Program-made: the position numbers and the translations under genes | Shown: one piece after another, positions 1,049 through 7,965 of the stretch | Numbering within the stretch: position 1 is the first letter of the stretch | Layout: each line of letters begins with the position of its first letter | The notes under the pieces: model-generated | Database searches by the model: none | What the model saw: the letters and a program-made list of their open reading frames with translations, nothing else | What the model was told of the DNA's origin: nothing | Virus record (IMG/VR): IMGVR_UViG_2698536647_000010 | DNA length: 12,502 nucleotides | Reading direction: 5' to 3' (one strand) | Source of the DNA: a virus | Lineage: Duplodnaviria > Heunggongvirae > Uroviricota > Caudoviricetes

Positions 1049-1547
1049 TTACTCCCTGACAGGGTTCGTAGGCCACTCAATATCAGGTGCAGTTGATGTA
1101 TCAACACGGTTCAGCAACACCCGATATTTTTTCCAGGCTTCCAGCAATGAGGTTTCTTCCTCCGTTGCGATCTCCAGATCTACAGCATCCTGAAGTGGCG
1201 CTATATGCTCACTGGCTACCTGCATCAGGCTGTTTTTTGTTTCTTCCGCCTCCCGGATCCGGAACAGTTTTTCTGCTTCCGTATCCTTCACCCAGGCTGT
1301 GCCGTTCCACTTCTGATATTCCCCTTCCGGCGATAACCAGGTGACATTTTCCGGTAACGAGCCAAGTTCAGAAATAAATAACGCGTCGCCGGAAGCCACG
1401 TTCTGGCGGTGCAATATCGGTACTGTTTGCTGGCAGACCTGTATGAGGCGGAATATATGCGTCACCTTCACCAATAAATTCATTAGTTCCGGCCAGCAGA
1501 TTATAAATTTTTATGGTCCGTGGTTGTTCACTCATTCTGAATGCCAT
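1049..1547 (-). pseudogene. tfa: Tail fibre assembly protein (lambda Tfa family), disrupted by an internal deletion/frameshift
   Basis: ATG at 1545-1547 overlaps the stop of the upstream fibre gene (TAATG arrangement). From it, [48 protein letters not shown] matches the recalled lambda/Rac Tfa N-terminus, then the frame stops after 59 codons (TGA 1368-1370). The conserved Tfa C-terminus ([13 protein letters not shown]...APDIEWP) continues in a different frame as the 1049-1483 ORF. About 29 aa of Tfa appear to be missing at the junction. Confidence 0.65.
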
Positions 1548-3375: not shown

Positions 3376-3837
3376 TCAAACAAACCCAGCCGCTTTCCGG
3401 CGCTCATATTCCTGTTTCAGCAGCTCAATTGGCGTTGGCCCCGACGGGCGTTTGGGTGCCGCCAGTTGTCGCCGGACTGGCGGAACGCTCAGGCCGTTAC
3501 TAACATGCTTTGCCCATTTCGTCAGCTGCCGTTCTGCAAGCCGTTTTAATTCCCCTTCGGTCATCTGGCGCTCAATCCCCTTTGAACGCATCTCAAGGCA
3601 AATGTGATACAGCACAGGCTGAGGCCACGGGTACTTATCACTTCCGTCATATCGCCAGGACTCATTGCGCCAGCGGCGGTACTCCTCCATCACAGCATCC
3701 ACCGTCAGACCGAATGGATTGGCTCCGCTTTCCGAAATCAGTGCCACAAACTCAGCCAGGTCCGGAGGCCATGTTTCACCCGCCCGGCAGCGGTCCATGC
3801 ACTGGCGGCAGACCTGTCGGATTTGCTGCTCAGTCAT
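3376..3837 (-). CDS. Replication protein P-like (lambda P family helicase loader), 153 aa
   Basis: Local similarity to recalled lambda P: a YPW-containing segment (DKYPWPQPVLYHI) and TEGELKRLAERQL resembling P's TDAELRRKAADEL. Start taken as the internal ATG at 3835-3837, which overlaps the upstream gene's stop (ATGACTGA), rather than the track's 4041 start that lies inside the preceding gene. No Walker A motif, so not DnaC-type. Confidence 0.55.
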   Translation of the reverse strand: MTEQQIRQVCRQCMDRCRAGETWPPDLAEFVALISESGANPFGLTVDAVMEEYRRWRNESWRYDGSDKYPWPQPVLYHICLEMRSKGIERQMTEGELKRLAERQLTKWAKHVSNGLSVPPVRRQLAAPKRPSGPTPIELLKQEYERRKAAGFV

Positions 3838-4870
3838 CGCGCCAATCTGTGCAATCCAGAGCTTCGAAGGTGCGGCCCCGTTCTTCTGGGTCCAGCGGTT
3901 CGAATAAACCTCCCCCATGAGTTCCCACAGCTTCCAGACCGTTTCCGTCGCTGATAAATCCGTTTTCACGTTCCCACTGCTCACGTGCTGCCCGAATTTC
4001 CTGAACTGCCCGTGATGCGGTGCCACCTGGTGCTGCTGCATGGTTTACCCCCTTGCTGACTGGCTTAACCTGCGCCCTGACGTGATTTACGTGACGGGCG
4101 AATTTCTGCTCCCACTGAACCTGCGTGAAAACTTTCCCCTCCGCTGCCCAGTAGTCCCGGAAAGCGGCAAGTTCAGCAGGTGTAAATTCCGGCTCCGGCA
4201 AAGCCATCCCCCACAACGCAGCCCGTCGTCGAAAATCCGGCGACGGATGCCAGTCATCGACCATCGGAAATTTCCCGATGGGTTCGCTCAGTCCATCCAG
4301 GGATGCAGGTTCTGCTGCCTGCAACGGCGTACCACTCGACTCACTGGTCGGAGCACTCTCGCGCACGTGCGCGTTATGTGTGGGGTTTAATTCTTTATCT
4401 GTATCTTTATCTGTCGTGACTCGTCGTGACATGTCGTGACATATGCGTGACTCGTCGTGACACCCCTCATTCTGTTTTCGTAATTTTTCCCTCTCGCGCT
4501 GCGCTCTCTTGCGCTCTGCCGGGGATTTCGCGGTTTGTGAAACGTTGCCATTGTCCTCTTTCAGTACCTGGCGTTTTTCCCATCCGGTGATTAAATCTCC
4601 ATCAAGTACCCGCCCCTGCATTGCCTGTAAAATTGAATCAATTACTTCTTCCGTCACATCAAGCGCACTTGCTAAATCTTCCGTCGTGACATCAATGTGA
4701 CCACGTAGTGACACGCCGTGACATGTCGTGACATTTCGTGACGCGCTCACCAGAAGGTGGATATACACTGCCATCACTGTTGCAATTGGCTGCCCTGACA
4801 CCCTGGCAATTGTTCGCCACTTAGGGTCATTTGGCATGTCATGCCATAATCTGAGCCAGGCGTTAGCCAT
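3830..4870 (-). CDS. Replication initiator (lambda O-like organiser) with a DnaT-like C-terminal region; contains candidate origin iterons within its coding sequence
   Basis: ATG at 4868-4870 preceded by GAGGTGA. Gene position is after the Cro-like and YdaT-like genes and before the P-like gene. Two clusters of phased GTGAC repeats lie inside the gene, as in lambda where ori sits inside O. C-terminal segment DWHPSPDFRRRAALWGMALPEPEFTPAELAAFRDYW resembles the DnaT/primosomal C-terminal type found on phage replication proteins. Confidence 0.6.
   Translation of the reverse strand: MANAWLRLWHDMPNDPKWRTIARVSGQPIATVMAVYIHLLVSASRNVTTCHGVSLRGHIDVTTEDLASALDVTEEVIDSILQAMQGRVLDGDLITGWEKRQVLKEDNGNVSQTAKSPAERKRAQREREKLRKQNEGCHDESRICHDMSRRVTTDKDTDKELNPTHNAHVRESAPTSESSGTPLQAAEPASLDGLSEPIGKFPMVDDWHPSPDFRRRAALWGMALPEPEFTPAELAAFRDYWAAEGKVFTQVQWEQKFARHVNHVRAQVKPVSKGVNHAAAPGGTASRAVQEIRAAREQWERENGFISDGNGLEAVGTHGGGLFEPLDPEERGRTFEALDCTDWRDD
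4411..4462. repeat. Iteron cluster A: five GTCGTGAC-type repeats phased at 10-11 bp, adjacent to an AT-rich tract
   Basis: GTGAC cores start at 4416, 4426, 4436, 4447 and 4457. Immediately to the left is the AT-rich 4388-4413 with TCTTTATCTG twice (4392-4401, 4404-4413). Confidence 0.6.
4683..4742. repeat. Iteron cluster B: six (C)GTGAC(A) repeats phased at 10-11 bp
   Basis: GTGAC cores start at 4686, 4697, 4708, 4718, 4728 and 4738. Same core as cluster A, about 225 bp away, inside the O-like gene. Confidence 0.6.
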
Positions 4871-4941
4871 ACTCACCTCTTCTGATACCGAATCTTTTTA
4901 CTCACAAATTGCCGGAAGTGATCCGGTATGAATATTGCGAG

Positions 4942-5367
4942 TCAATGCACAGCCACAATATTTCCTGCAGGGCCACCACGATTCATCTGGTTGAAACCAG
5001 CGATCGCCACTGCGACAAAATCATCAGCGTCTCTCACCAGTCGTTCCCGCGTCTCCACCAGCTCCCGAAAATAAGCTGAACTGTGGCTGCGCATTCGGGC
5101 CACCAGCAGAGGCGGCATTGCTTTTTCGATCGCTGGTAACAACGCCTGAATTTTTTTAACCGCATCAGGAGTGTCTTTCTCCACCCAGCGGAAAATTTTC
5201 TGGGTATTGCGAGCCAGGGCTTCCGGATGGCTGTCGTCATATAATTCCGGGAACGTCATACCAAGCTCAAAATAAGCCCGGGTTATTTCAGCTGCCGGAA
5301 CTTTTTCACCGTCCGGATGCGCCCAGGCATTCATCGCCATGCGGATGTGCTCATGCCTGATTTTCAT
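4942..5367 (-). CDS. YdaT-like protein (proposed CII-type early regulator of Rac-type prophages), 141 aa
   Basis: Begins MKIRHEHI..., with size and position directly after the Cro-like gene (17-nt overlap), matching the ydaS-ydaT arrangement as recalled. Family assignment from memory, not searched. Confidence 0.45.
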   Translation of the reverse strand: MKIRHEHIRMAMNAWAHPDGEKVPAAEITRAYFELGMTFPELYDDSHPEALARNTQKIFRWVEKDTPDAVKKIQALLPAIEKAMPPLLVARMRSHSSAYFRELVETRERLVRDADDFVAVAIAGFNQMNRGGPAGNIVAVH

Positions 5368-5626
5368 GAATCAACTCCGATGCATTTGGTGTGTTAGCCT
5401 TGAATCCAACAGGTAAGCCGTCGGTTGGATTCGGGTAAATATCAGGCCGGAGTTCATGAGGTGTAACCTCGAAATTCGTTACTTCAGCAACACGTAATGC
5501 TTTTTCAGGGCTGAATCTTTCATAGCCCCCCAGCACTCGACTTACATGCACCTGAGATAAACCCGTTAGCTTCCCAAACTGTAGCTGGGTGATATGTTTC
5601 TCTTTTAAATAGTCTCTTAAGTTCAT
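5351..5626 (-). CDS. Cro/DicC/YdaS-family small HTH regulator (91 aa)
   Basis: Divergent from the repressor gene. HTH-like segment QLQFGKLTGLSQVHVSRVL and a C-terminal ELRPDIY motif resemble YdaS/DicC-type proteins. Start taken at ATG 5624-5626 (MNLRDYL...) with an AAGG-type SD, rather than the TTG at 5632. Confidence 0.6.
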   Translation of the reverse strand: MNLRDYLKEKHITQLQFGKLTGLSQVHVSRVLGGYERFSPEKALRVAEVTNFEVTPHELRPDIYPNPTDGLPVGFKANTPNASELIHENQA

Positions 5627-5656
5627 AGCCAACCTTCTACGTTATGTCTCGAGCAA

Positions 5657-5685
5657 ATATTAGCCCCGCTAATTTTAAAGATCAA
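5657..5685 (-). promoter_or_regulatory. Candidate early promoter for the Cro-like gene (TTGATC - 17 nt - TAATAT on minus strand) overlapping a 13-bp perfect palindrome (candidate operator)
   Basis: On the minus strand the -35 is at 5680-5685 and the -10 at 5657-5662 with a 17-nt spacer. Palindrome TTAGC-CCC-GCTAA at 5660-5672 lies in the spacer/-10 region. A TGATAATAT extended -10-like element at 5702-5709 faces the repressor gene. Confidence 0.4.
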
Positions 5686-5733
5686 TAGCCAGACTATCTT
5701 TGATAATATTGGTAAAACAAATAAACTCTATGT

Positions 5734-6195
5734 ATGAAAAAAACACGCGAAGTGATTGCAACTCCAGAAGCGAGCAAGAATTTAAAAGCCGCATGGAATG
5801 CAAGAAAAAAAGAGCTGAAGCTGACTCAAGAGCTGGCGGCTGAGTTGTTGGGATTCGAATCTCAAGGCACCGTTAGCCAGTATCTGAACGGCAAGATACC
5901 GGTAAATACCGACGCTGCGCTAAAATTTGCGGCTCTGTTAAAGGTAAAACCAGAGGACATTCGAGAAGACCTTAAAGACTTAATGAATTATGTAAGATCA
6001 TCAGATACTTATGATGATAACTTTTCAGGCAAAGGATGGAGGCTGGTCAATGAAGAACAGGCAGAGTTACTTAACCTCTTCGAGATTCTACCTGCGTCAG
6101 AAAAAGCCAAACTCCTTAACCAGCTACGTGGACTAAACAAGCTCTACGAGGAAGCCTTCGAGAACATGCTGGCACTAAAGAAACGTAACCAGTAG
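5734..6195 (+). CDS. Prophage immunity repressor, DicA/RacR-type XRE-family HTH protein (153 aa)
   Basis: HTH segment LTQELAAELLGFESQGTVSQYLNGK; C-terminal ELLNLFEILPASEKAKLLNQL resembles recalled DicA (ELLELFNALPESEQ). Divergent from the Cro-like gene and followed by the ydfABC-dicF-dicB cluster. No SD before the ATG, so possibly leaderless or weakly translated. Confidence 0.8.
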   Translation: MKKTREVIATPEASKNLKAAWNARKKELKLTQELAAELLGFESQGTVSQYLNGKIPVNTDAALKFAALLKVKPEDIREDLKDLMNYVRSSDTYDDNFSGKGWRLVNEEQAELLNLFEILPASEKAKLLNQLRGLNKLYEEAFENMLALKKRNQ

Positions 6196-6221
6196 CCACC
6201 GCTCACTACCCCATCCACAAC

Positions 6222-6251
6222 AAAAAAACCGACGTCTTAGTCGGTTTTTTT
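6222..6251 (+). terminator. Rho-independent terminator, symmetric and potentially bidirectional
   Basis: AAAAAAA-CCGAC-GTCTTA-GTCGG-TTTTTTT: a short GC stem flanked by A7 and T7 runs, directly after the repressor stop. Confidence 0.65.
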
Positions 6252-6348
6252 GTGCCATAACTTCTGCAAATCAGCTGTATAACTAATATTTTTCCCTTGA
6301 AAAAACATTTACATAGTTACCAAATCAAAAATATCATACGCCATACTA

Positions 6349-7912: not shown

Positions 7913-7965
7913 TTTCTGGTGACGTTTGGCGGTATCAGTTTTACTCCGTGACTGCTCTGCCGCCG
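7913..7965 (+). ncRNA. dicF: DicF small RNA (cell-division inhibitor sRNA that targets ftsZ mRNA)
   Basis: TTTCTGGTGACGTTTGGCGGTATCAGTTTTACTCCGTGACTGCTCTGCCGCC followed by a T-run (7966-7970) matches the recalled E. coli DicF sequence almost base for base. It lies about 175 nt upstream of dicB, as in Qin. Confidence 0.85.

Follow-up and report, generated by a model that had tools for sequence, protein, structure and literature searches.

Replication origins in which iterons and an unwinding element lie inside the gene of the initiator itself are a known type. In lambda and the Stx phages, both elements are located within the initiator gene, and in the Stx phages two extra iterons result in 13 extra amino acids in O (PMC7466680). 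Another example is phage SPP1, where oriL lies in gene 38 and has direct repeats with an adjacent unwinding element (PMC6316719, PMC5737612). In the plasmid pSK41, the Rep boxes lie inside the gene of the Rep protein, where the segment encoded by the origin is a dispensable linker and the N-terminal domain (N-domain) is DnaD-like, and natural hybrids of this type exchange the N-domain together with the origin (PMC5703833). The prophage Rac has been reported to carry an active origin, oriJ (PMC3945230). The present report concerns a 12,502-nucleotide stretch of DNA from a virus of the class Caudoviricetes (IMG/VR record IMGVR_UViG_2698536647_000010; the whole stretch is called the window below), in which two arrays of short direct repeats and an A+T-rich tract lie within the gene of a replication initiator. 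This segment (4386-4742) very likely serves as replication origin for a lambdoid prophage of the Rac/Qin-like type, and the prophage initiator in whose gene it lies belongs to a protein family without a described origin.

As in lambda and the Stx phages, the sequence that encodes the initiator contains iterons and, past them, an A+T-rich tract, and a P-like gene comes directly afterwards. Common to these loci is also that the iterons and the N-terminal part specific for the origin are exchanged together as a single module, the C-terminal part being the partner of the loader, and that added iterons keep the reading frame and make the protein longer. The iterons of lambda are 19-bp units with inverted repeats, as opposed to the direct repeats found here, which are 10/11 bp long, run head-to-tail and have a core of 5-6 bp; there are also two arrays here, one of them in the loop of the folded DNA-binding domain, and the C-terminal domain of the initiator is DnaT-like. 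The initial annotation had described the layout as that of lambda and the initiator as O-like; the first description holds, whereas the second does not, as the protein has a predicted DnaD-like N-domain and a DnaT-like C-domain, falls outside the lambda O family (Phage_rep_O) and has no sequence match to lambda O.

With SPP1, whose initiator G38P is a replisome organizer, the locus shares direct repeats and an adjacent A+T-rich (here putative unwinding) element in the initiator's own gene, with loader and helicase functions encoded after it, and the N-domain has weak matches to the PHROG families 'replisome organizer' and 'DnaD-like helicase loader'. It differs in that SPP1 has a distant copy of the repeats, oriR, about 13 kb away, whereas both arrays here lie within 330 bp, and in its Gram-negative hosts and P-like loader. 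Neither the window nor two complete phage genomes contained such a distant second copy, and in the two genomes no phased clusters were seen beyond the pair in the initiator gene. pSK41 (RepA_N) is a Gram-positive plasmid whose four Rep boxes share one site and whose initiator has a primase-binding C-domain, as opposed to the DnaT-like C-domain and separate P-like loader of the present locus, and sequence similarity between the two is undetectable.

Two iteron arrays and an A+T-rich tract within one gene

Eleven GTGAC cores, all on the same strand, were found in two clusters, with plus-strand starts at 4416, 4426, 4436, 4447 and 4457 (cluster A, five cores) and at 4686, 4697, 4708, 4718, 4728 and 4738 (cluster B, six cores). 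Each core follows the last at a step of 10 or 11 nt, and nine of the eleven read CGTGAC. With an iteron array taken as at least three repeat units in the same orientation at regular spacing, there are thus arrays of five and six units. The gene lies on the minus strand, where the core reads GTCAC and cluster B is upstream of cluster A; the clusters are called arrays A and B below, and their coordinates are given in Table 1. The number of GTGAC copies in the window is ordinary (23 observed, 19.75 expected), and it is their arrangement that is unusual, as chains of six and five cores compare with a maximum of three for any 5-mer in 300 dinucleotide-preserving shuffles. Tandem Repeats Finder returned period-10 arrays at 4413-4461 and 4708-4742, so that the eleven cores, two clusters and 10-11 bp spacing listed in the initial annotation were borne out by both motif and repeat searches. 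Two unphased copies, at 7919 and 7948, sit inside DicF and are unrelated to the iterons.

Array B of this window has two units more (21 bp at 4700-4722, encoding the 7 amino acids TCHGVSL, residues 49-55) than the corresponding array of Tritos, 689R5 and all distant relatives. The six-unit form is also present in an O157:H7 allele, and larger iteron-bearing insertions are found in the loop of other loci. The copy number of array B shifts in pairs of units that preserve the frame, and the loop encoded there tolerates insertions and deletions of at least 7 amino acids across relatives. Across species, 209-319 nt separate the last unit of array B from the first of array A, with no fixed helical phase. 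In most loci of the GTCAC class, the single inverted core downstream of array B recurs at an equivalent position (+192 or +180), with GTG as its valine codon in 17/17; it is not general among relatives, since outside this class it is kept solely in two GTAAC loci.

Array A abuts an A+T-rich stretch with a duplicated sequence, as had been noted from the start: G+C is 0.35 at 4380-4419, against 0.5-0.65 in the flanks, and TCTTTATCTGT(A) was found duplicated at 4392-4414 by Tandem Repeats Finder and by a repeat finder. This is a general property of the relatives, since the A+T content of the 40 nt past array A exceeds that of the locus in 41 of 44 cases, by an average of 20 points (Wilcoxon p = 3e-12), with 74% purine on the sense strand. 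In almost every locus the tract is built of hexamers, as (GATAAA)n, (GATACA)n, (GAAGCA)n or (AGAAGA)n, and the peptide it encodes is DKDKD, DTDTD or EAEAE. AGATAAAGATAAAGA is retained even where the A+T content of the host is just 31-39%, and in the codon test described below GAT (18/18) and AAA (16/17) are fixed. The tract is thus selected as DNA as well, beyond base composition, and it is proposed to be the DNA-unwinding element, at which melting would occur. Its length is polymorphic within E. coli, the (GATAMA)n tract of the O157:H7 allele (L059, strain 2149) being 12 nt longer through an extra codon set of the DTDK type. A second A+T-rich stretch (4620-4659, G+C 0.325) lies next to array B, downstream in the sense of the gene; the inverted core falls within this stretch, whose sequence, in contrast to that of the tract past array A, is not conserved among relatives.

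Constraint on the repeats as DNA and concerted change of both arrays

Loci encoding relatives of the N-domain were compared with one genome per species, giving 55 loci from gamma-, beta- and alpha-proteobacteria. In about 27 of these, which range from 34 to 69% in G+C, GTCAC occurs at matching relative nucleotides (128, 138, 148, 159 and ~386-417), and the inverted GTGAC at 192. A codon test was applied to 20 species (31-66% A+T), in which normalised synonymous entropy was determined for amino-acid columns that are at least 85% conserved. The entropy was 0.04 in the 10 columns whose third base falls in a core, as opposed to 0.76 in the 62 other columns (Mann-Whitney p = 1e-6, a value that is merely indicative because the species are phylogenetically related). 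The fixed core codons of array B are GTC, ACG, GGT and CAC (all 20/20 species), and those of array A are TCA (20/20), GTC (20/20) and CAC (18/18), with the serine codon TCA used in the cores by 19-20 of the 20 species overall. The 91%-identical O157:H7 allele has no differences at the 60 positions within cores and 42 at the 427 positions outside. The repeats are constrained as DNA beyond what the protein requires, and this removes an objection raised in the initial annotation, namely that the repeats might be conserved in homologs as protein and not as DNA.

The same data bear on whether the repetition could stem from constraint on protein or RNA alone, be it a repetitive linker in the peptide, a structured mRNA or a signal for translation. 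While the residues encoded by the cores (NVT, RGH, DVT, CHD, SR and VT) are invariant in the protein alignment, as a conserved linker would lead one to expect, the one 5-mer is read in all three frames (codon phases 2, 0, 1, 2, 1, 0 and 1, 2, 1, 2, 0, with the readings V-T, C-H, S-R and G-H), so that a single peptide repeat cannot generate the arrays, and synonymous sites are frozen inside the cores and saturated outside them. The three codon phases and the synonymous-site test rule out a peptide repeat, and the constraint on DNA accounts better for the invariant residues, which would be its by-product. As for RNA, GUCAC and the inverted GUGAC could pair, but the folds of the arrays are no more stable than those of shuffles (z = 0.33 and -1.43) and no Rfam family is found there. 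An origin of the repeats in protein- or RNA-level constraint alone is thus given almost no credence. The locus represents an unusually clean case of dual coding, in which apparently invariant residues would be dictated by overlapping sites for a DNA-binding protein, and any attempt to infer functional residues from conservation in this initiator family needs to allow for overlapping iterons.

Diverged subfamilies of the N-domain lack GTCAC and carry GTAACG(C), CGAACGC, (T)GCAACGC or CGTCACG at the same two sites. These replacement cores keep the 10/11-nt spacing, and each locus uses one core at both sites. In 22 related loci, the spacing between units is 10 nt in 92 cases and 11 nt in 26, and the commonest 6-mer of the site-B zone occurs 7.7 times per kb in the site-A zone, as opposed to 0.42 times per kb in the rest of the loci (both strands). 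When aligned, the unit consensuses (atGTCACGc, TGTAACGCA, CCGAACGCA and ATGCAACGCA) consist of a variable triplet followed by a constant ACGCA. The core class of the arrays changes together with the subfamily of the N-domain, and both arrays change in concert. Because the two arrays always share one motif, a single common reader is implied and not two proteins; the identical core argues against the earlier suggestion that the clusters are sites for two different proteins, and the presence of two clusters, which had been regarded as less usual, is conserved as a trait of the whole family. The two arrays, the 10-bp head-to-tail units, the four iteron classes and the sequence-conserved hexamer tract are the family-wide features most worthy of note.

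Phased repeats of this kind could also serve another binder, such as a host factor or a phage protein for packaging, partition or repression, with their place in the initiator gene being incidental. Plasmid centromeres such as R1 parC likewise have short direct repeats phased at 10-11 bp in two clusters. However, the arrays occur solely in the coding sequence of this N-domain, in alpha-, beta- and gamma-proteobacterial hosts, and travel with it through exchanges of the C-terminal and loader modules, and two whole phage genomes contain no further cluster. Moreover, the core switches along with the N-domain subfamily, and a host factor would not shift its specificity in step with a phage domain. 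Recognition by such a protein is therefore considered very improbable.

The initiator, its modules and a proposed mechanism

The only Pfam match of the whole initiator is DnaT. The C-terminal domain (amino acids ~193-270) belongs to the DnaT C-terminal family (PF17948, E = 9.6e-18, above the cut-off) and matches the DnaT chains 4ou6 and 9zbt in PDB with E of about 1e-20, and the cut-off of the full-length DnaT equivalog was missed (97 bits vs 201). No Pfam or NCBIfam model matched the N-terminal 160 amino acids; the N-domain alone gave a best E of 0.038 against Pfam, to an unrelated helix-turn-helix family, with the Pfam replisome-organizer model unmatched, and its profile found nothing among the sequences of solved structures. 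Its strong PHROG matches are to unnamed or 'replication initiation protein' families, and its weak ones have E = 4e-7 ('DnaD-like helicase loader') and E = 4.5e-5 and 1.6e-3 ('replisome organizer'). In an AlphaFold2 model of amino acids 1-160 (predicted local distance difference test, pLDDT, 69 overall and 84-92 in the core), helices at 2-14, 16-25 and 29-45 are followed by a loop at 46-62 (pLDDT <50 at 48-54), helices at 63-70 and 74-84, a beta wing, a basic helix at 117-134 and a disordered tail at 136-160. The N-domain is predicted to be a DnaD-like winged helix. In this model, array B encodes the loop and array A with the tract encodes the disordered tail, so that both arrays sit in coding segments for a predicted loop or linker.

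The similarity of the window to other phages switches partner at 4392-4412, inside the A+T-rich tract, which marks a mosaic joint between N- and C-modules. Left of the joint (C-domain, P and ydaW), the window matches the Rac-SA53 and PPompW prophages at 94-95%; right of it (N-domain and both arrays), the similarity is to Tritos, Evi, 689R5 and others (87-90%). The module of N-domain and iterons is combined with a P-like loader here, with a DnaC-like loader in Aeromonas phage pAEv1818, and in Tritos with another C-domain and no recognisable loader. The N-domain, array B, array A and the tract travel as one module that is joined to different C-terminal and loader modules. Of 5426 complete E. coli genomes, 2186 (~40%), including O157:H7, have prophages with this module, which is also present in Pseudomonas, Aeromonas, Bordetella, Chromobacterium and numerous further proteobacteria.

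In the comparison with related prophages suggested in the initial annotation, ydaU of Rac-SA53 is a case in which GTCAC arrays are absent. The gene order ydaS-ydaT-ydaU-ydaV-ydaW of Rac (E. coli K-12) is shared with the window, and the C-terminal two-thirds of the initiator are 94% identical in DNA to the Rac-SA53 gene (annotated 'primosomal protein I'), which differs in having an unrelated N-domain. In this gene (positions 3600-3690 of locus L001, minus strand), an inverted repeat, TGTTCAAAC...GTTTGAACA, precedes a tract of AAAGATACAGATACAGAT (GATACA) and may be a different origin-recognition element placed before the common unwinding tract.

The proposal that iterons and an A+T-rich element in the initiator gene constitute a candidate origin is supported by the constraint on DNA, which acts on repeats and tract alike, by the concerted cores, by the retention of the tract in G+C-rich hosts, by the P-like loader gene that follows, and also by the placement of the arrays in predicted loop and linker segments and by the modular layout. 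The identity of the binder, the site of melting, any looping and the order of events belong to the following proposed mechanism. The DnaD-like winged-helix N-module would bind the 10/11-bp units (consensus atGTCACGc) head-to-tail in both arrays, on one face of the helix. Coated with protein, the arrays, which are about 230-250 bp apart, would probably join in one higher-order complex, which would destabilise the neighbouring purine-rich (GATAMA)n tract. The DnaT-like C-domain would then hold the exposed single strand, and the P-like protein encoded next door would deliver host DnaB.

A stricter version, in which the origin is truly bipartite, with initiator oligomers bridging both arrays, a loop of ~230 bp needed for opening and the tract acting as a specific single-strand element, is considered rather unlikely. 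Under it, the AGATAAAGATAAAGA tract might be an analogue of the DnaA-trio, read by the initiator or the loading machinery; the hexamer tract is common even to initiators with an unrelated N-domain (Rac-SA53 type). If the bipartite version were true, the four iteron classes would represent a natural specificity series from which mutually orthogonal origins could be engineered.

An alternative role for at least array B, outside the opening site, is that the repeats bind the initiator mainly for control, by autorepression, transcription roadblock, titration or copy pairing like the control iterons of plasmids. Array A alone adjoins the conserved A+T tract, array B lies ~230 bp upstream with the extra inverted core, and the distance between the arrays is not strictly phased, all of which would suit such a role; the two extra iterons of the Stx phages, which are weakly bound yet needed for replication, may also be cited here (PMC7466680). 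On the other hand, array B is conserved as strongly as array A and its core changes in step, as expected of one nucleoprotein complex, and copy control is not a known need of lytic phage replication. A control function is therefore judged improbable, and it would touch the role of array B alone, being compatible with array A and the tract as the origin.

Several observations weigh against the assignment of 4386-4742 as an origin read by this N-domain. Few residues specific to an iteron class fall outside the iteron-encoded stretches, and the class-discriminating columns there lie mainly at amino acids 105-135, in a comparison that is confounded by phylogeny. The predicted recognition helix (amino acids 74-84) is acidic and is variable inside a single iteron class. 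Array B is without a conserved A+T tract of its own, so that its role may be in initiation or in control, and the relatedness of the species in the codon test has been mentioned above. In the literature on the origin of this initiator family, on ydaU iterons and on oriJ, no description of such an origin and no binding or replication assay was found. The location of the proposed origin nevertheless provides a concrete target for work on how such prophages are induced and replicated, for the construction of compatible replicons derived from phages and for the annotation of these genes, whose current labels vary between 'hypothetical', 'primosomal protein I' and 'replication protein O'.

Neighbouring genes and further features

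The region represents the early-right operon of an E. coli prophage of the lambdoid, Rac/Qin-like type, and the window is identical to strain 118UI (100%) across the 501 nt compared. A divergent repressor lies upstream and a DUF1627 (ydaW-like) gene downstream, and transcription from the immunity region passes through the proposed origin. DicF RNA, dicB, ydfB/C, hokD and a recE-like exonuclease are found nearby. The product of the gene that follows the initiator belongs to the lambda P family (PF06992, 60.3 bits vs a cut-off of 26, E 2.5e-16) and matches phrog_109, 'P-like helicase loader' (E = 6e-64). With the RefSeq start, taken from the annotation of an identical locus, it overlaps the end of the initiator gene by 8 nt (3830-3837), which suggests translational coupling, and the longest open reading frame, with an overlap of 212 nt, is probably not used.

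Table 1. Positions of the proposed origin elements, the initiator and neighbouring features in the window
Feature	Position	Strand	Description
Iteron array B	4683-4742	-	Six GTCAC cores; encodes amino acids 43-62 (SRNVTTCHGVSLRGHIDVTT), predicted loop between helices of the winged-helix domain
Iteron array A	4411-4462	-	Five GTCAC cores; encodes amino acids 137-152 (CHDESRICHDMSRRVT), end of the N-domain
A+T-rich tract	4386-4414	-	Purine-rich, hexamer-periodic; gene sense ACAGATAAAGATACAGATAAAGAATTAAA; encodes TDKDTDKELN; abuts array A; proposed unwinding element
Single inverted core	4653-4657	+	GTGAC in gene sense; codons Val72-Thr73; 33 nt downstream of array B
Initiator gene	3830-4870	-	346 amino acids; N-domain 1 to ~100, basic helix 117-134, DnaT-like domain
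DnaT-like single-stranded-DNA-binding domain	4070-4270	-	Amino acids 201-267 of the initiator
Lambda-P-like helicase-loader gene	3376-3837	-	RefSeq ATG at 3837; longest open reading frame reaches 4041
Upstream early genes	4942-5632	-	YdaS/Cro-like 5351-5632, YdaT-like 4942-5367; same leftward operon
Palindrome	4360-4373		Perfect, 14 bp, CGCGCACGTGCGCG; 13 bp past the A+T-rich tract, in the C-module; membership of the origin uncertain
DicF antisense small RNA	7914-7965	+	Rfam, 72.5 bits
IS009 RNA family	1092-1290	-	Rfam, 224.5 bits

Two fusions of the N-domain have been observed, in a Serratia metagenome-assembled genome (L045) and in a Pantoea sp. (L051), where its amino acids 1 to ~105 are joined to an unrelated C-part (YVYYV...GISxNPWAR...). 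Recognisable repeats are absent from both sites in these two loci, which may represent a non-initiator use of the domain. Alternative C-modules, such as the C-terminal end of Tritos gp36 (L002 1888-1960) and those of several proteins in alignment A1, end in ...PDxEIPPGFRG. This end resembles the final 24 residues of DnaT (E 0.0015) and may be a short docking motif common to otherwise differing C-domains.

A possible DnaA box in the tract was rejected, as TTATCTGTA differs from TTATCCACA by three mismatches (by eye). A scan of 3700-6300 for promoters and terminators gave sites no more numerous than in shuffles, and its sole match inside the proposed origin is the palindrome at 4360-4373, which is imperfect in Rac-SA53. 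The origin of lambda likewise has a palindrome past its A+T tract.

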